Positions 164-7,444 of a stretch of 12,264 nt of DNA are shown here, piece after piece (position 1 is the first letter of the stretch; each line of letters starts with the position of its first letter). The position numbers and the translations under genes were made by a program. This DNA is from Candidatus Omnitrophota bacterium (GTDB lineage: Bacteria; Omnitrophota; Omnitrophia; Omnitrophales; Aquincolibacteriaceae): the NCBI GenBank assembly GCA_043803685.1, contig JAZDJU010000074.1:1-12264 (forward strand), given 5' to 3'. The notes beneath the pieces were generated by a model. That model searched no databases. It was not told the DNA's origin and saw only the letters and a list, made by a program, of their open reading frames with translations.

Positions 164-1315
164 TCAACGCCAGTGGGTCCGGCGTTTGAAGAGGGCCATC
201 TGGAGAGCGTCAACGAGGATGGCCGTGAAGACGAGCGCCGCGAGCGGGTGAAGAAAAGCGAAGCGTTTTCTGGCTCTGACGATCGCGTAGGCCGTGGCCG
301 CGGTGGCGAAAATAATAACAAGGATCAAGACGCAAAGAAGTAGAGAGACGACGCCGTGGCGCGGCAGCGCGGCAAGCGCCAGGAACGGGAGCACCGAAAA
401 GACGAAGACGCTCATGACGCATTTCAGGAGCGCTGCTGGTTTTTGTTCGAACGCGTGGAGGAAGATCCTCCGCCAGCCGCGCCAGATCGAGTCAAAGGAT
501 TCGTACATCCGGGTACCGTAGAGCTCCATGCCGAAGGCGCACATGCCCCGCGCGCCTGTCTCCTTGGTTTTTTTCATGAGCGCAAAGTCTTCGAGAAATG
601 CCTCTCTCACACCGTCATGGCCACTGATCTTCCGGTAGTGGTCCGCTTTGAGGAGCAGGTATTGGCCGTTGCCGAAATACACTTCAGATCTTGGGTCATT
701 GATCTTCTGGACGGGGAACCAGAGTCCCATATATCCCATGGCGCAGGGTTGGACCAACTCTTCCCAAAATCCGTGAGCGAGACAGCGAGGGAGGAGCGTT
801 AAAAGATCGAGCTTCTTTTCTTCCGCGAAGGAAAGCGCGGCGTCGAGGCTACCGGGTTCGTGGCGCGTGTCGGCGTCAGTGAAGAGGAACCAATCGCCCG
901 TGGCGTGCCGGACGCCGAGGTCGAGCGCGTAGTTCTTGCCCGTCCAACCCTCCGGAGTTTTCGGGGTATTCAGATATCCGAAAAAGGGGTCTGACCCCTT
1001 TTTGCCATCCGGGATCTCCACGGCGCCCAGTTCCTTCAGGATCGCTTCTGTCCTGTCCTCCGAACAGTTATTGATGACGATCAACTCGTCGCCCTTGCGA
1101 AGCTGGCACAGGAAAGGCTTCACACAGTCCGCGATGTTCTTCTCTTCGTTCTTGGCGGGGATGAGGATCGAGACTTTTCCCAGTCGCCGCGCGTTTCCTG
1201 TGAGTTCCAAGGTAGGCGCCTGTTTCAATTCGGAGAGTGATCGCCAGCTGCGATAGACCCACCCCGCGAGGATGAAAAGGAGGAAAAACAAGAGAGCATT
1301 CGAGGTGGTTTCCAT
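164..1315 (-). CDS. Membrane-associated family 2 glycosyltransferase (CrtQ/CruC/HpnB-like carotenoid or hopanoid GT subfamily)
   Basis: N-terminal TM, VSILIPAKNEE, GWTGKNYA, FTDADT (DxD), NGQYLL, LEDFAL, RMY..W.GW, C-terminal TM helices. Start placed at ATG 1315 because the ORF-track ATGs at 1330/1327 lie inside a -10 box. Confidence 0.85.
   Translation of the reverse strand: METTSNALLFFLLFILAGWVYRSWRSLSELKQAPTLELTGNARRLGKVSILIPAKNEEKNIADCVKPFLCQLRKGDELIVINNCSEDRTEAILKELGAVEIPDGKKGSDPFFGYLNTPKTPEGWTGKNYALDLGVRHATGDWFLFTDADTRHEPGSLDAALSFAEEKKLDLLTLLPRCLAHGFWEELVQPCAMGYMGLWFPVQKINDPRSEVYFGNGQYLLLKADHYRKISGHDGVREAFLEDFALMKKTKETGARGMCAFGMELYGTRMYESFDSIWRGWRRIFLHAFEQKPAALLKCVMSVFVFSVLPFLALAALPRHGVVSLLLCVLILVIIFATAATAYAIVRARKRFAFLHPLAALVFTAILVDALQMALFKRRTHWR
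981..1003. repeat. REP-like palindrome, copy 1, in frame inside the GT gene
   Basis: AAAAAGGGGTC-T-GACCCCTTTTT, perfect 11-bp arms; translated as KKGSDPFF. Confidence 0.9.
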
Positions 1316-1325
1316 AAGAGAGGGC

Positions 1326-1353
1326 ATCATAACAAAAGACCCAGACCGGTCAA
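1326..1353 (-). promoter_or_regulatory. sigma70-type promoter of the GT gene
   Basis: Minus strand TTGACC-N16-TATGAT with an extended -10 (TGT-TATGAT), 10 nt before ATG 1315. Confidence 0.6.
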
Positions 1354-1372
1354 GGCAAATTGAAGAGAACCC

Positions 1373-1400
1373 ATAGCCGATAGCTTATAGCTGAAAGCTC
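1373..1400. repeat. Degenerate heptamer tandem repeat
   Basis: ATAGCCG ATAGCTT ATAGCTG AAAGCTC. Confidence 0.7.
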
Positions 1401-1507
1401 TGGAACGGCGGAAGAGCGGGGCGTATACTTAGTCGCGCGAAGGGGGCAGGCGCCGCGCGGCACCTGACTCCCTTGAATGAAACGAGGGACAGGGCATGGC
1501 AAATAAT

Positions 1508-1524
1508 GGGGTCAGACCCCTTTT
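1508..1524. repeat. REP-like palindrome, copy 2 (intergenic)
   Basis: GGGGTC-A-GACCCC followed by TTTT; same core as 981, 4998 and 10524 in the opposite orientation. Confidence 0.85.
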
Positions 1525-1539
1525 CGCAGGAAATGACAC

Positions 1540-1568
1540 AAGCGGGCCCACGCCCGCTTTTTTCTTTT
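1540..1568 (+). terminator. Intrinsic terminator-like hairpin
   Basis: AAGCGGGC-CCAC-GCCCGCTT followed by TTTTCTTTT. Confidence 0.65.
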
Positions 1569-1574
1569 AATTCT

Positions 1575-1669
1575 GGGGACACATCACTTAATTAGCGCTT
1601 AATCGGGTAAGAAACGAAAAGGGTTTTGAGATGAAAAGACAAATGATCGCTGGTGTTTTTCTGGCTCTG
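1575..1669 (+). repeat. Direct repeat copy A: upstream region plus start of signal-peptide coding sequence
   Basis: Blocks identical to copy B: ACATCACTTAATTAGCGCTTAATCGGG (1581-1607), TAAGAAACGAAAAGGGTTTT (1608-1627), ATGAAAAGACAAATGATC (1631-1648), GGTGTTTTTCT (1652-1662). Confidence 0.95.
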
Positions 1670-4228
1670 CTGCTTGTAGCACCGGTTATGTTGTTGGCCG
1701 AGAGCTCTGATGCGAAATCCTCCTCCGTTCTTCCCGAAGTAGATTCGACGAGTTCGGCAAGCTCACCGCAGGCAGGCTCACTTCCCCAGGTTCAAGCTCA
1801 TGATCCATTGCCGGCGGCTTCCTTCCCGGCTCAGGCGGGGAGTCGTGAAATGGAGCATGTTTTGGTGCTCCACTCGTACCAGAAAGGGCTCACCTGGACC
1901 GACAGCGAGGACTACGGAATCCGATTAGCGCTCAAGAGACGCGCGGAGACCCTTGAGGTGCATACCGAATACCTGGACACCAAGACTATCTCTGGCGAGG
2001 AGTATTCTCGAAAGCTCTCTGAGCTTATGGCGCATAAATATGCGTCGATGGGTCTCAAGGTTGTTATCGCGACGGATGATGACGCCTATAAGTTTTATCT
2101 CAAGTATCAAAAGACCCTTTTCCCAGGGGTCCCTGTGGTGTTTTGCGGCGTCAACTACTTCAAGGACTCGCAGAGGGAAGGCAACGAGGACCTTGTGACC
2201 GGTGTTGTCGAGGCGTTTGATATCCTGAGCACGCTTCGTAAGGCTCTTGAGTTGCATCCCCGTGCCTCGCGAGTGATCGTGATCAACGATAAAACCACGA
2301 CCGGCATTGCGAACAAAAAAGTCATCACCGAAGAGGTCGCCCCGCAATTTGCCGGGAAAGTCGAATTCGTATTTTATGAAGATCTCACCATGCAAGAGCT
2401 GCTCGAAAAAGTGCAGACCGTTTCGCCCAACAACATTATTCTGCTGATGACCTTCAACAAGGACCGGGACGGCAAGGTATTCAATTATGACCAGAGTATT
2501 TCTCTCATTGCCGGGGCCGCCAGGGCGCCGCTCTACGGGGTCTGGGATTTTTATCTCGGCAAGGGGATCCTCGGGGGCATGCTGACAAGCGGTGTGGACC
2601 AGGGGAGGATGGCGGGCGAGATGGCCCTGCGCATTCTGGACGGAGAAAAGGTCCGGGCCATTCCTGTCGTCAAAGAAAGCCCCAACCGCTACAAATTCGA
2701 CTATCAACCCCTGAAACGTTTTGGCATCCCTACTTCGAAACTGCCGCTGGGCAGCATGGTCATCAACGAGCCGGCTTCCTTTTACTCCCAGTACAAGGGC
2801 CTGGTGTGGGGAGGCGTATTCAGCTTTCTGGGAATGAGCCTGATCATCCTGTTGCTCCTTCGGGTGATCGCGGGGCGCAAGAATGCGGAGAAAGAACTGC
2901 GAGAGAGTGAGTCGAAATACCGGCGCTTTATTGACACGGCCTACGAAGGCATCTGGATGTTGGGGCCGGATTTGATGACGACCTATGTCAACGAGCGCAT
3001 GGTCGGGATGATCGGTTATTCCGCCGAGCAGTTGCTGGGCCGGCCGTTTACGGACTTTCTGTTCGAGGAGGACGTGCCCGAGCACCACGCGAGGATGGAG
3101 AAACGCCGGCAGGGAATATCGGAAAGCTATGATCTGCGGATACGCCATAAAAATGGAAAGACAGTATGGGCTCATCTTTCCGCCACGGTTATCTTTGATG
3201 AGAAGCATTGCTTCCAGGGCGCCTTTGCGATGTTCACCGATATCACAGAGCGCAAGAAATCGGAGGAGTTGCTTCATCGCTTGAATCGGGAGCTGCGGGC
3301 TATCAGTGGTTGTGATCAGGTTTTGGTGCGCGCTGAAGACGAACAAGCACTGCTCAAAGAAATTTGCCGTATCATCTGCAACGAGGCCGGCTACCGGATG
3401 GCTTGGGTGGGCTATGCCGAAAATGATGACGCTAAAACCATTCGTCCTGCGGCCTGGGCTGGAGTCGAAAGCGGACATATTCCGAGTGATAATTTAAGTT
3501 GGGCAGAGGATGTGGAACAGGGGCGCGGACTCGCCGGCAGGGTTATTCGAAGCGGAGAGATGCTCTGCGTCCAGGATTTTACGACGGATCCACAAATGGT
3601 TCCATGGCGTCAAGCTGCTTTGCAACTGGGTTATCGCTCCGGGATAGCGTTACCGCTTAAAGCTGAGAGCGGAAGAACATTTGGCGTTCTTCTGATTTGC
3701 TCCAAAGAGATCAATGCCATCACCCCGGATGAAATACGCCTTTTGGGTGAGTTGGCGGGTGATTTGGCTTTTGGTATCGTTTCGTTACGTGCTCGCGTCG
3801 AACACAAACGCGCGGAGGAGGCGGTGAGAGAAGCCCATATGCTTCTGGCGCAGTCGTCGAGATTCACCGAGGCGTTGCTTTCAGCGATGCCCATCCCTGT
3901 GTTCTACAAAGACAGGGAAGGCCGGTATCTGAGTTGCAACCGTGCTTTCACCGAACTTATGGGCGTCACGTCCGGGGAGATAAAAGGAAAAACAGTTTAC
4001 GAGATCTGGCCCGGCGAGCTCGCCCAAGTATACCATTCCAAAGACCTGGAGTTGATGAGCCATCCCGCCCGGCAGGTTTACGATTTCAAAGTACAGGATA
4101 AAGACGGGGTGATCCGTCCGGTCATTTATGTTAAGGATGTCATTCGCAATGCGGACAATCAAGTGACGGGAATCGTCGGCGCCTTTCTGGATATCACTGA
4201 ACGCAAGCCCGCGGAAGAGCCGTTGTAG
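1631..4228 (+). CDS. Membrane sensor: signal peptide, periplasmic ABC-substrate-binding-like domain, TM, PAS, GAF, PAS; no output domain (possibly a truncated histidine kinase)
   Basis: Hydrophobic N-terminus; VLVLHSY..., APLYGVWDFYLGKGILGG, QGRMAGEMALRILDG; TM at ~2800-2872; two PAS/PAC units ending DITERK; GAF with YRMAWVG and YRSGIALPL. Ends DITERKPAEEPL*. Confidence 0.85.
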   Translation: MKRQMIAGVFLALLLVAPVMLLAESSDAKSSSVLPEVDSTSSASSPQAGSLPQVQAHDPLPAASFPAQAGSREMEHVLVLHSYQKGLTWTDSEDYGIRLALKRRAETLEVHTEYLDTKTISGEEYSRKLSELMAHKYASMGLKVVIATDDDAYKFYLKYQKTLFPGVPVVFCGVNYFKDSQREGNEDLVTGVVEAFDILSTLRKALELHPRASRVIVINDKTTTGIANKKVITEEVAPQFAGKVEFVFYEDLTMQELLEKVQTVSPNNIILLMTFNKDRDGKVFNYDQSISLIAGAARAPLYGVWDFYLGKGILGGMLTSGVDQGRMAGEMALRILDGEKVRAIPVVKESPNRYKFDYQPLKRFGIPTSKLPLGSMVINEPASFYSQYKGLVWGGVFSFLGMSLIILLLLRVIAGRKNAEKELRESESKYRRFIDTAYEGIWMLGPDLMTTYVNERMVGMIGYSAEQLLGRPFTDFLFEEDVPEHHARMEKRRQGISESYDLRIRHKNGKTVWAHLSATVIFDEKHCFQGAFAMFTDITERKKSEELLHRLNRELRAISGCDQVLVRAEDEQALLKEICRIICNEAGYRMAWVGYAENDDAKTIRPAAWAGVESGHIPSDNLSWAEDVEQGRGLAGRVIRSGEMLCVQDFTTDPQMVPWRQAALQLGYRSGIALPLKAESGRTFGVLLICSKEINAITPDEIRLLGELAGDLAFGIVSLRARVEHKRAEEAVREAHMLLAQSSRFTEALLSAMPIPVFYKDREGRYLSCNRAFTELMGVTSGEIKGKTVYEIWPGELAQVYHSKDLELMSHPARQVYDFKVQDKDGVIRPVIYVKDVIRNADNQVTGIVGAFLDITERKPAEEPL

Positions 4229-4290
4229 TCCGGGGCGCCCCAGTTCAGTTCGTGGGACCCTCTCGCGTTAAATCTACGCAAGGCGCATTC

Positions 4291-4415
4291 GGGGGACATC
4301 ACTTAATTAGCGCTTAATCGGGGAATCCGTTGTGCATCTCGTAGGTGAACAGGGTAAGAAACGAAAAGGGTTTTAGATGAAAAGACAAATGATCATGGGT
4401 GTTTTTCTTGTTCTG
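4291..4415 (+). repeat. Direct repeat copy B (32 bp longer than copy A)
   Basis: Same blocks at 4296-4322, 4355-4374, 4377-4394 and 4398-4408; extra segment 4323-4354 ends in GGG, matching the GGG before it. Confidence 0.95.
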
Positions 4416-5624
4416 ATAGTTGGGGTGCCAGGAATGCTCACGGCTGAAACGACCGCGGCGCCTGTTCCCAATCCCACAGGGACGGCTGAAGAGCGCCGTG
4501 AACAGGCGCGGCACAGTGACGCTTTAGGAAAAGCGTCTACTGTGTCCGTGGGACAATCGTCTACTGCGACCGTAACGACTTATGATCAATTGGTGGCGGC
4601 GATCCGAAAGGCGAGGGCGGCGAGTCAGGCGCGGGTGGAGCAGGCAGTGGCGCAGGAGAAGGTGCGCGAGTGCTGGGAGACCGGTAAGCTCATTGACGAG
4701 CACGTGCTTCAGCATAAAGAGAGAGCGGATTATGGAAAGCAGGTGATCCTGAGATTGTCCCAAGACTTGTCCATCAGTGATTCCGAGTTGTACTACATGC
4801 TTGAGTTCGCTCGCACCTACCCAATTTCCCAGCCCGCTGGAAAATTGAGTTGGAGTCACTATGTGGAGCTTCTTTCGCTTAAGGATGTGGAGGAGCAAGT
4901 TGCTGTCGCGGACATGGCTGAAAAAGGGAATTGGACACGCGACCAAATCCGCGAAGAAATAAAAAAGCGGAAAGCGGCGCGAGGGCTCACCGGAACAGAA
5001 AAGGGGTCTGACCCCTTTTCCGCGGAGAAGAAACTCACTGCGAAGCTGGGGAAGGTCGGGACTTACAGGATGGTCAAGGCGACCGTGGGCCCCGAGACCG
5101 GGAAGGTTGTGATCGATCTCGGGTTCTCGAACTATTACCGGACGTCGCGGCCGCTAGGGTTCAAGGAAGGGGCGATCATCGAAGCGCTGTTCGCGCTTCC
5201 GGAAGGCTCGTCACCCTCGGACAAGATCAAACTTTCGAAGCGGACCTCCGCCGATCTTTATACCTACCGCGCCTACGTCCACAGGGTTCTCGACGGTGAC
5301 ACGATCGAAGCCGTCATTGATCTTGGGTTCGGCGTCCGGAGTGTGCAGACTCTGCGCCTGCGAGGCATTGACGCGCCGGAGATGGTGAGCAAAGAGGGGA
5401 AGGAAGCGAAGGCATTCTTAGAAAAAGAATTAAGAATCACAGAAGCAGAGAAGCAAGAAAAATCTCTGCCTCTTGCCTCTGACCTCTCAGCTTCTCCCGT
5501 TCTTATTCGTACTGTGAAGTCAGACAAGTACGACCGCTACCTGGCAGATGTTTTCATGGATGGTCTTTGTCTGAATCAGGCGTTGGTGGAGAAGGGGCTT
5601 GCGGTTCGTGTACGCGATAATTAG
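4377..5624 (+). CDS. Signal peptide + DUF1016 (YhcG) N-terminal domain + thermonuclease (SNase-like) fusion
   Basis: DUF1016_N-like at ~4578-4965 (YDQLVAAIRK, WETGKLI, RADYGKQVILRLSQDL, LSWSHYVELL, NWTRDQIREEI). SNase at ~5260-5620 (RVLDGDTI, LRLRGIDAPE, DKYDRYLADV, LNQALVEKGLA). Confidence 0.85.
   Translation: MKRQMIMGVFLVLIVGVPGMLTAETTAAPVPNPTGTAEERREQARHSDALGKASTVSVGQSSTATVTTYDQLVAAIRKARAASQARVEQAVAQEKVRECWETGKLIDEHVLQHKERADYGKQVILRLSQDLSISDSELYYMLEFARTYPISQPAGKLSWSHYVELLSLKDVEEQVAVADMAEKGNWTRDQIREEIKKRKAARGLTGTEKGSDPFSAEKKLTAKLGKVGTYRMVKATVGPETGKVVIDLGFSNYYRTSRPLGFKEGAIIEALFALPEGSSPSDKIKLSKRTSADLYTYRAYVHRVLDGDTIEAVIDLGFGVRSVQTLRLRGIDAPEMVSKEGKEAKAFLEKELRITEAEKQEKSLPLASDLSASPVLIRTVKSDKYDRYLADVFMDGLCLNQALVEKGLAVRVRDN
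4998..5020. repeat. REP-like palindrome, copy 3, in frame in the inter-domain linker
   Basis: GAAAAGGGGTC-T-GACCCCTTTTC, perfect arms; translated as EKGSDPFS. Confidence 0.9.
5441..5495. repeat. Imperfect inverted/heptamer repeat in frame in the SNase domain
   Basis: Arms AGAAGCAGAGA...TCTCAGCTTCT; units TCTGCC TCTTGCC TCTGACC TCTCAGC; encodes EAEKQEKSLPLASDLSAS. Confidence 0.6.
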
Positions 5625-5647
5625 CGTACGGCGTACGGAGTACGGCG
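5624..5647. repeat. Heptamer tandem repeat at the nuclease stop codon
   Basis: GCGTACG GCGTACG GAGTACG GCG. Confidence 0.75.
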
Positions 5648-5767
5648 AAAAGGGGACAGGGGCGATTTTAAAAATCCTTCTCAGTCCACCATTCCAAGAC
5701 CGGGTTCTAGAACCGGGTCTTGGAATCGGGTAAGAGCCAGCCCCTGAAAAGTAGCCTGTCCCCTTTT
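5648..5767. repeat. MITE/REPIN-like element with 13-bp terminal inverted repeats and a central 36-bp palindrome
   Basis: AAAAGGGGACAGG (5648-5660) and CCTGTCCCCTTTT (5755-5767); centre ATTCCAAGACCGGGTTCTAGAACCGGGTCTTGGAAT (5691-5726, one mismatched pair). Confidence 0.75.
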
Positions 5768-5783
5768 TCAATTCCGACGTCAA

Positions 5784-5812
5784 TTGACCCTGCTAGCGAA
5801 CTAACATATAAT
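5784..5812 (+). promoter_or_regulatory. sigma70 promoter of the lysS operon
   Basis: TTGACC-N17-TATAAT. Confidence 0.8.
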
Positions 5813-5818
5813 GCGCCC

Positions 5819-6016
5819 TAACATGTTTTTATCATTTCAGTTAGGGCCATCCTGCCCTGGCCTTTTTGATTTTTAAATTAAGGGTGGTCAGGGCTGCACT
5901 TGCAACCTATGAATCTTAACAAATGCAAGTGCTGAAGTGAGCCCAGAGGGGCGAACAAAGGGTCTCTTTAATTTCCGTCTTAAATCATTCAGTAACAAGG
6001 CATAAGGACAACATCA
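5819..6016 (+). ncRNA. Candidate structured 5' leader or ncRNA upstream of lysS (family unassigned)
   Basis: Hand-folded stems: 5832-5839/5933-5940, 5854-5871/5876-5894 (several G-U pairs) and 5896-5904/5924-5932 (perfect 9 bp). Confidence 0.4.
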
Positions 6017-7444
6017 ATGACCACTTCGGATTACGGGCACAGGTTCCTTCCCAAGGATTCCCTCACGGAGATCCTGGCGAATTTCCAGGACGGGCGCAAA
6101 GTGCGCGTGGCGGGGCGAATGATGACACGCCGGGACATGGGGAAGAGCGCGTTCGCGGACCTGAAGGACGAGGGCGCGCGCATGCAGATCTATGCCAAGA
6201 AGGACATCTTGGGCGAAGAGAACTACAAGTTCTTCACGGGGCTTTCGCTGGGGGACATTATCGGTCTCGAGGGGGAGCTTTTCAAATCCAAGACCGGGGA
6301 GCCTACGATCAAGATCGAGAAATTCGAGCGGCTTTCCAAGATCGTACGGACCCTGCCTGAGAAATGGCATGGCTTAAAGGACGTGGAGACGCGCTACCGC
6401 CACCGCTACGTGGATTTGATCTCCAACGACGAAGTGCGGGCGACCTTCAAGGCTCGCAGTCGCATTATTCGTGAGATCCGCGCGTTTCTCGACAGTAAGG
6501 ATTTTATGGAAGTTGAAACGCCCATGATGCAACCCCTGGCCGGCGGCGCGCGCGCGAAACCGTTCGTGACACACCACCATACGCTCCACACCGACCTTTT
6601 CCTTCGCGTGGCGCCGGAGCTTTATCTCAAGCGCCTTCTTGTGGGAGGTTTTGAAAAAGTCTATGAGATCAATCGCAACTTCAGGAATGAAGGCATCTCG
6701 GTGCGTCACAATCCCGAATTTACGATGATGGAACTTTACCAGTCGTACGCGGATTATGAAGACATGATGAATATCACCGAAGAGCTGACGCACCACCTCG
6801 TGACAATGCTCTACGGAAAAGATGAGATCCCGTACGGAGACAAGGTGTTGAACTTCAAGCGGCCCTGGAAACGCATTTCCTTTTACGGCGCGCTCGAGGA
6901 AGCGACGGGGATGGACTTCCGGAAGGTGAATGTTCGCGAAGCGGCGAAGCAACTTCACGTGGAAATTGCCGATAACATGGAGGACATCGATGTCCTGAAT
7001 GAGATCTTCGGGGAAAAGGTTGAGAAGGATTTCTGGGACCCGGTGTTCGTGATCGATTATCCGACCGTTATGACGCCTCTGGCGAAGGCCAAAGCCGACG
7101 ACCCGGAACTCGTGTACCGTTTCGAGCTTTTCGTCGCGAAGATGGAGATCGCCAACGCTTTTTCAGAGTTGAATGACCCGTCGGTCCAGCGCGAGCGGCT
7201 CACGGAGCAAAAGGAATTGATCGGCGAATCGAAAGAGATCGACGAGGATTTTCTCATGGCGCTCGAGTACGGGATGCCTCCTGCCGGGGGATTGGGGATT
7301 GGCATTGACCGGCTGGTCATGTTGCTCACGAACCAGGCTTCGATCCGGGATGTGATCCTGTTCCCGCAGTTGAAGCCGGAGAAGAAGGCTGAAGGAAATG
7401 CAATGCAGGATGATCAGCTTCCCCCTTTTGTAAAGGGGGAGTGA
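6017..7444 (+). CDS. lysS: Lysine--tRNA ligase (class II)
   Basis: OB-fold VRVAGRMM..R.MGK..F, LPEKWHGLKDVETRYR, FMEVETPMM, FRNEG..HNPEFTMMELY, LEYGMPPAGGLGIGIDRLVMLL; SD AAGGA at 6004-6008. Confidence 0.98.
   Translation: MTTSDYGHRFLPKDSLTEILANFQDGRKVRVAGRMMTRRDMGKSAFADLKDEGARMQIYAKKDILGEENYKFFTGLSLGDIIGLEGELFKSKTGEPTIKIEKFERLSKIVRTLPEKWHGLKDVETRYRHRYVDLISNDEVRATFKARSRIIREIRAFLDSKDFMEVETPMMQPLAGGARAKPFVTHHHTLHTDLFLRVAPELYLKRLLVGGFEKVYEINRNFRNEGISVRHNPEFTMMELYQSYADYEDMMNITEELTHHLVTMLYGKDEIPYGDKVLNFKRPWKRISFYGALEEATGMDFRKVNVREAAKQLHVEIADNMEDIDVLNEIFGEKVEKDFWDPVFVIDYPTVMTPLAKAKADDPELVYRFELFVAKMEIANAFSELNDPSVQRERLTEQKELIGESKEIDEDFLMALEYGMPPAGGLGIGIDRLVMLLTNQASIRDVILFPQLKPEKKAEGNAMQDDQLPPFVKGE

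Follow-up and report, generated by a model that had tools for sequence, protein, structure and literature searches.

How did two neighbouring genes whose products have unrelated domains come to begin with the same upstream sequence and the same signal peptide? The question is raised by contig JAZDJU010000074.1 of a Candidatus Omnitrophota bacterium (GenBank assembly GCA_043803685.1), in which a gene for a sensor protein is followed on the same strand by a gene for a nuclease with DUF1016_N and SNase domains. The window analysed here is the entire contig of 12,264 bp (C74), which belongs to a metagenome bin of 2.89 Mb in 133 contigs, with a G+C content of 52%, a completeness of 91% and an estimated contamination of 6.6%. 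Contigs are designated by number (Cn), the genome under study is G000 and its relatives are labelled G001 to G018 and so on. We propose, with a probability of roughly 0.6, that the sensor gene is a one-off recombinant chimera carrying the 5' end of a nuclease paralogue, and that gene conversion then took place between the two neighbouring leaders. The two genes and their leaders are:

1581 to 1663, plus strand: leader copy 1, the high-identity tract with the 5' untranslated region (UTR), the ATG and codons 1-11
1631 to 4228, plus strand: sensor open reading frame (ORF) of 865 amino acids, the putative chimera
4296 to 4409, plus strand: leader copy 2, the high-identity tract, including 32 extra bases at about 4320-4351
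4377 to 5624, plus strand: DUF1016_N-SNase nuclease of 415 amino acids, predicted to be exported (signal peptide 1-25, linker 26-67, DUF1016_N 76-198, SNase 295-411)

The first-pass annotation of this DNA had noticed a duplicated upstream region and homologous N-termini on two genes with different domains, and BLAST, MAFFT alignment and genome-wide k-mer counts all bear this out. Both proteins start with a signal-peptide-like segment of 25 residues and have one 26-residue hydrophobic stretch (residues 3-28), followed by a linker rich in Ser, Thr, Ala and Pro and then by unrelated domains; the leader signal peptide contains no cysteine. The two DNA copies share exact blocks of 27 bp (1581-1607 = 4296-4322 by BLAST; 24 bp in the MAFFT alignment), 23 bp (1605-1627 = 4352-4374), 20 bp (1629-1648 = 4375-4394, spanning the ATG and five codons) and 11 bp (1652-1662 = 4398-4408), which are split by indels of 32 bp (additional in copy 2) and 1 bp (one G missing from copy 2). 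Three of the block lengths given originally (27, 20 and 11 bp) therefore stand, and the fourth, of 18 bp, is corrected to 23 bp. When searched against the entire genome, the two leader pieces gave E values of 1.7e-18 and 4.1e-7, the other 11 of the 14 rows having E>=0.03, and three 18-19-mers from the leader have two exact occurrences each genome-wide. The genome thus holds two exact leader copies only, and BLAST gave the same count, with no further significant match. Since the copies are direct repeats, recombination from one to the other would remove about 2.7 kb, with a leader-nuclease gene as the product, as had been pointed out from the start. RNA folding of the two leaders gave z-scores of 0.09 and 0.66, a structure that is not unusual, and in a promoter and terminator scan neither leader had a sigma-70-like site and the sensor and nuclease genes were not separated by a terminator.

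The composition of the sensor gene indicates which of the two genes donated the leader. Its parts are:

1631 to 1807, plus strand: nuclease-derived module, with the signal peptide (residues 1-25) and a Ser/Pro linker, up to HDP, which corresponds to YDQ at the start of the nuclease core
1808 to 1849, plus strand: what is left of the native sensor signal sequence (residues 60-73, LPAASFPAQAGSRE), identified by alignment to the N-terminal ends of 12 sensor homologues
1850 to 2881, plus strand: periplasmic ABC_sub_bind-like domain and second membrane helix (residues 389-417), assigned from PF04392, homologues and hydropathy
2915 to 4207, plus strand: cytoplasmic PAS-GAF-PAS region, the ORF ending right after a DITERK motif without a transmitter domain

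Residues 1-59 are 43.5% identical over 62 amino acids (E 5.6e-5) to a nuclease paralogue on C116 and 48% identical over 62 amino acids to the database nuclease P0007, and at the DNA level 1749-1806 can be aligned gap-free with the C116 linker as far as the YDQL codons. Sensor-family homology sets in only at residues 60-74, residues 60-73 matching the C-terminal end of the homologues' signal sequences, and all 12 aligned sensor homologues have different N-termini. Because residues 1-59 are nuclease-like and sensor-family homology begins only after them, the direction of transfer, from nuclease to sensor, is clear from the alignments, which place the joint between the nuclease module and the sensor body at about nt 1807/1808, to within a few codons. 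The remainder of the protein resembles the periplasmic-sensing histidine kinases and diguanylate cyclases that carry PF04392. Its own PF04392 score is 23.1 bits, below the cut-off of 25.9, and the PF04392-carrying homologues are 59-70% identical to it over the periplasmic domain and second helix and 66% over PAS-GAF, with the same topology of a periplasmic ligand-binding domain between two membrane segments followed by cytoplasmic PAS/GAF domains. Unlike them, however, the sensor has had its native N-terminus replaced and has no transmitter or output domain: a Pfam search for HisKA plus HATPase_c, His_kinase and GGDEF found none, and the protein ends right after PAS. Among the matches listed, all 119 other homologues have such a domain (HisKA/HATPase, His_kinase or GGDEF).

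The sensor body also looks foreign to this genome, judging by where its relatives occur. The periplasmic part has no match at E<=1e-10 in 40 related genomes, in which the best matches span the PAS domains only. A search of species representatives with the sensor protein alone returned no close relatives; with the sensor alignment it returned 78 related loci, none of them titled Omnitrophota, and the best-matching loci (56-62%) are titled Deltaproteobacteria, Desulfuromonadaceae, Elusimicrobia and Nitrospirota.

The nuclease, on the other hand, belongs to a family of this phylum. It scores 73.1 bits with PF17761 and 38.3 bits with PF00565, both above the cut-offs, and when aligned to thermonuclease chains of the PDB it keeps the motifs DGDT, RL..D.PE and DKY.R.LA, which we take to be the calcium-binding and catalytic positions. 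By hydropathy and alignment only, its N-terminus has a basic start ahead of the hydrophobic stretch and an L-x-A/E motif common to the paralogues. It has these motifs in common with staphylococcal thermonuclease (PF00565), an exported enzyme, and is itself a candidate for export; it differs in that DUF1016_N at the N-terminus and a middle domain are added, that the linker varies and that each genome has many paralogues. The family accounts for 13 matches in its own genome and up to 18 in a relative, and is present in 31 of the 41 genomes searched. We identified 1373 related database proteins at E<=0.001 (7999 scored), most of which have both domains, and those that are named are nearly all Omnitrophota; relatives in other species, too, have this architecture. 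A hydropathy criterion detects a signal-peptide-like hydrophobic N-terminus in 99 of 120 database homologues. The paralogues on C116, C31, C129, C117 and C123 each have their own signal peptide and a variable linker ahead of a conserved TYDQL core, and the other paralogues differ from this nuclease in their UTRs and first codons. On C117, directly ahead of a signal-peptide-bearing paralogue (16387-17439), a short frame corresponds to the first 22 or so residues of a nuclease lacking a signal peptide (MSVPALATYAALRDRVRQTLLL...), so that here as well a complete nuclease gene is preceded by the relic of a nuclease 5' end. A gene with an ORF6N domain (PF10543; 13204-13728 in locus L075) adjoins nuclease paralogues in G001:C32 and G017:C30 and lies 6 kb from the C31 paralogue. 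With the DUF1016_N part, 22 models of PDC-S02, a candidate phage-defence system in PADLOC, give matches (best E 2.1e-25), and papers on DUF1016 describe a canonical PD-(D/E)XK form near restriction and defence genes. A literature search on nucleases of Omnitrophota listed no paper on the DUF1016_N-SNase family.

At the left edge of both leaders lies a dispersed repeat, which we call the box:

1569 to 1593, plus strand: short-form box (AATTCTGGGGAC followed by ACATCACTTAATT), where the shared sequence begins
4254 to 4308, plus strand: long-form-like box upstream of the nuclease, aligning with copies of about 50 bp on C28, C31 and C57

The GGGG(G)ACA motif at the start of both repeats had been likened to the palindrome family of this locus. 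It is instead the left part of the box, which ends in ACATCACTTAATT and is distinct from the GGGGTCWGACCCC palindrome. Exact copies of the box number 17, spread over 8 of 20 genus genomes and including six in its own genome, and a reversed control gave none. It occurs in a short form of 25 bp and in a form of about 50 bp with an internal hairpin-like insert, and the sequence to its right is variable. In its own genome it stands upstream of three nuclease paralogues, and near-exact copies lie upstream of nuclease genes in two other species, in G018:C153 and G012:C40; it is also found beside unrelated genes. Small dispersed repeats upstream of genes are familiar from repetitive extragenic palindromic (REP)-like and miniature inverted-repeat transposable element (MITE)-like sequences, such as the Correia elements of Neisseria. 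From its sequence alone, the box is likewise small and dispersed (25-55 bp), has short and hairpin-bearing forms and lies beside varied genes; unlike such repeats, it is enriched upstream of nuclease paralogues, the 17 exact copies including those at three nuclease genes and the chimera. The box family is represented on C28, C31, C57 and C129, among other places; the long-form inserts vary in sequence while their self-complementary ends are, by eye, seemingly kept, which suggests that the long form is a structured element. Several copies in other species run on into a common CTATTCCCTCACCC stretch. The long form was also compared with the sequence upstream of the C117 paralogue as a possible decayed N-terminus of a nuclease without signal peptide, and the similarity was too short to judge. 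When the window and six loci with the box were scanned with Rfam at E<=1, the only matches were three eukaryotic ones at chance level, none of them at the leaders; the box has no Rfam match.

The resemblance between the two leaders is not uniform along their length. Over codons 1-11 the sensor and the adjacent nuclease are identical at 29 of 33 nt, and over codons 12-25 at 22 of 42 nt and 6 of 14 amino acids. For these latter codons the sensor is nearer to the G018:C153 nuclease (11 of 14 amino acids), and its linker is closest to those of C116 and P0007, which makes the leader a mosaic. The near-identity of 1581-1663 and 4296-4409 is therefore most likely the product of a later, short gene-conversion tract between adjacent leaders and not of a single decayed duplication, since a sharp break in identity after codon 11 fits a short tract better than uniform decay.

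In the order of events that we favour, a sensor fragment, probably acquired horizontally, would have lost the front half of its own signal sequence together with the entire transmitter domain, and would have been joined in frame to the 5' end of a putatively exported DUF1016_N-SNase paralogue. The donated 5' end would comprise the upstream box, the 5' UTR, the start codon, a cleavable signal peptide, the Ser/Pro linker and three codons from the start of the core. Directly downstream sits an intact nuclease paralogue whose leader is of this kind. The module is predicted to supply the truncated sensor with a translation start, Sec-dependent export of the periplasmic domain and probably transcription signals, and a later short gene conversion would have homogenised the two high-identity tracts. 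We infer this order, and the expression and export of the chimera, from the alignments and domain predictions. Several points weigh against the proposal. The case stands alone: in a collection of 5.8 billion proteins both the chimera and the nuclease beside it are singletons, so that no intermediate state can be shown, and the order of events cannot be reconstructed. The G+C content is uniform across the insert (0.52-0.57), and composition thus offers no independent sign of foreign origin. Finally, the high-identity tract could be held by selection on a common regulatory and translation-start region, and the box upstream is also conserved across species.

Selection of this kind is part of an explanation we consider improbable, in which the 5' end of the nuclease was duplicated in place, with or before insertion of the sensor, and the copies then diverged while the UTR and first codons remained under selection. 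The UTR and codons 1-11 of the sensor are indeed matched most closely by the adjacent nuclease, the exact leader is confined to these two copies, and conservation of the box upstream of nucleases in other species suggests a function. Against this explanation stand the abrupt fall in identity from 29/33 to 22/42 nt and the rest of the sensor's signal peptide and linker, which is nearer to G018:C153, C116 and P0007 than to its neighbour, and as the UTRs and first codons of other paralogues differ, strict conservation is not a rule of the family.

The position of the two genes raises another possibility. They lie between two conserved and divergent genes, and the features that delimit the region are:

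164 to 1330, minus strand: GT2 glycosyltransferase, the conserved left neighbour (Pfam PF00535, E 4.3e-21), with orthologues of 68-78% identity in 14 of the 15 genus relatives searched
1368 to 5778: lineage-specific insert (about 4.4 kb), bordered by the conserved spacer next to GT2 and by the lysS promoter, its flanks aligning with the spacers of G005, G007 and G004
5784 to 5812, plus strand: lysS promoter-like site (TTGACC, 17 nt, TATAAT), conserved in relatives and forming the right edge of the insert
6017 to 7444, plus strand: lysyl-tRNA synthetase (lysS), the conserved right neighbour, 83-94% identical in genus relatives

GT2 and lysS are on one contig in 10 of the 15 relatives, in which the spacer between them is as follows:

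106-143 bp (G005, G007, G004): empty
about 430 and 536 bp (G003, G012): without a clear gene
1.7-4.1 kb (G002, G009, G001, G014, G010): a secreted protein; two metabolic-looking genes; response-regulator and kinase genes

The spacer is thus a hotspot of gene content in the genus, with five different cargo sets in five relatives, always inserted just upstream of the conserved lysS promoter. Comparison with relatives, proposed initially as a way of finding an empty, nuclease-only state, therefore confirmed a variable site and not that state, which was seen in none of the 10 relatives with a contiguous locus.

Such a setting invites the idea, which we regard as unlikely, that the sensor was trapped between directly repeated mobile or highly recombinogenic units, formed by the nuclease genes or by the box at their 5' edge, much as cargo is in a composite element, was delivered to the GT2-lysS spacer and can still be excised by recombination between the leaders. 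The sensor fragment is indeed bounded by nuclease-derived sequence at either end, its target spacer is a hotspot and the box is dispersed over 8 of 20 genomes in its 17 exact copies. The nuclease family is multi-copy and its members are not syntenic between species, the C31 region being conserved in relatives only to about 0.3 kb past the 3' end of the gene; many of the family's matches are fragments or lie at contig ends, and the relic ahead of the C117 paralogue indicates that 5'-end relics recur. Against this, the Pfam scan of the nine main genes on the contig found no transposase or recombinase, and the edges of the insert showed no recognisable terminal inverted repeats or target duplication. 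The spacer cargo of the five relatives is without the box, with no exact box matches on those contigs, exact identity between the repeats does not exceed 27 bp, and a second unrelated cargo was not found in the 20 genomes. The proposal that the locus is an active site of capture or shuffling is accordingly not supported: none of the 10 relatives with a contiguous locus is nuclease-only, no recombinase is among the nine scanned genes and the longest exact block is 27 bp. Nor is an integron-type site indicated, there being no recombinase domain in the nine main ORFs scanned, although attC-like sites were not searched with a dedicated model.

Whether the leader is a portable cassette, as had been suggested, can be judged from its occurrence elsewhere. 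The first 60 residues of the sensor gave 11 non-self matches at E<=0.03 in the 20 genus genomes; ten are N-termini of the nuclease family and the eleventh is a small frame judged unrelated. A match in G001:C7 proved to be a small secreted frame, its relation being uncertain, and a weak tblastn match of the nuclease signal peptide on C28 is an unrelated, lipoprotein-like frame of 65 amino acids. A second unrelated cargo behind the leader was found neither in the 20 genus genomes nor within the genome itself. A module of box, 5' UTR, start, signal peptide and linker has thus been grafted onto unrelated cargo, as first supposed, but its use as a portable cassette on many cargoes is not supported: it is the native 5' end of one family, the nucleases. 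With no second cargo, no other unrelated protein with the module and no recombinase among the scanned genes, a one-off chimera is the better description.

The closest parallel described is found in Borrelia burgdorferi, where the 'upstream homology box' of the erp genes (OspE/OspF/Elp), a conserved promoter/operator and leader peptide, was recombined onto unrelated mature parts (PMC10016077). The likeness is that a promoter and leader module is joined to an unrelated mature part. The erp family comprises many genes at allelic sites on cp32 prophages and has a lipoprotein leader, whereas here there is one cargo, one enzyme family, a chromosome-like contig and a cysteine-free leader. The erp module stands on several genes with unrelated mature parts; in the 20 genus genomes we found one unrelated cargo. 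It is very unlikely, then, that the 5' module of the nucleases, made up of the dispersed box, the UTR, the signal peptide and a disordered Ser/Pro linker, is a recombination-prone adaptor for expression and export that repeatedly captures foreign gene fragments at variable spacers and directs them to the surface or periplasm. Mosaic leaders, the relic N-terminus on C117 and the hotspot location are compatible with such an adaptor; the single cargo is not. If it did exist, it would be a chromosomal counterpart of the erp leaders within an enzyme family, the nuclease copies providing flanking homology for gain and loss of cargo.

That the contig is an assembly artefact, its parts wrongly linked by way of the repeated leader or of sequence common to organisms of the metagenome, is hardly credible: the bin is metagenomic with 6.6% estimated contamination, the contig is short (12,264 bp) and the sensor's nearest relatives are from other phyla, but the longest exact repeat, at 27 bp, is to our knowledge too short to mislead the usual assemblers, indels distinguish the two copies, the sequence at each junction is unique, the left junction is in frame within an intact ORF of 865 codons, the flanks are syntenic with 10 relatives and the G+C content is uniform.

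A one-off chimera of this kind would show cleanly how, in nature, an incoming gene whose product is exported, but which has lost its N-terminal part, can be rescued by the start, export signal and spacer of a resident family. The mechanism is ordinary gene fusion plus gene conversion, and alone it reveals no new mobile or cassette system. The locus also draws attention, in a barely studied phylum, to an expanded family of putatively exported nucleases, to a conserved box upstream of many of them and to small spacers with gene turnover.

The gene order along the contig is GT2 (minus strand), sensor, nuclease, lysS, an FtsX/MacB-type permease and ABC ATPase, a class IV aminotransferase, a small ORF without Pfam match and an ATP:guanido phosphotransferase. 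Other repeats around the two genes are:

1502 to 1524: copy of the palindrome AAAAGGGGTCWGACCCCTTTT
1540 to 1559, plus strand: hairpin with a T run after it, resembling a terminator; this small element is a dispersed repeat, with copies of 91-96% identity on C116 and C31
4997 to 5018: palindrome copy inside the nuclease coding sequence, where it encodes KGSDPF within a variable linker between domains
5691 to 5726: perfect palindrome with 18-nt arms downstream of the nuclease gene, resembling the dispersed ATTCCAGACC...GGTCTGGAAT palindromes near the C129 and C31 paralogues

The palindrome AAAAGGGGTCWGACCCCTTTT has 20 copies in the 2.9-Mb genome, four of them on this contig (980-1001, 1502-1523, 4997-5018 and 10521-10542). 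Two copies are within coding sequences, in frame as KGSDPF, and the one in the GT2 gene occupies a hypervariable loop whose length is unchanged relative to nine orthologues. A system of REP sequences and REP-associated tyrosine transposases (RAYT) was considered for the GGGGTCWGACCCC palindromes and rejected, a palindrome being found within 1.5 kb of none of the three Y1_Tnp matches in the genome. The 5' UTR of lysS (5813-6016), which is without an Rfam match, is about 150 bases longer than in most relatives and contains a hairpin at 5840-5861.

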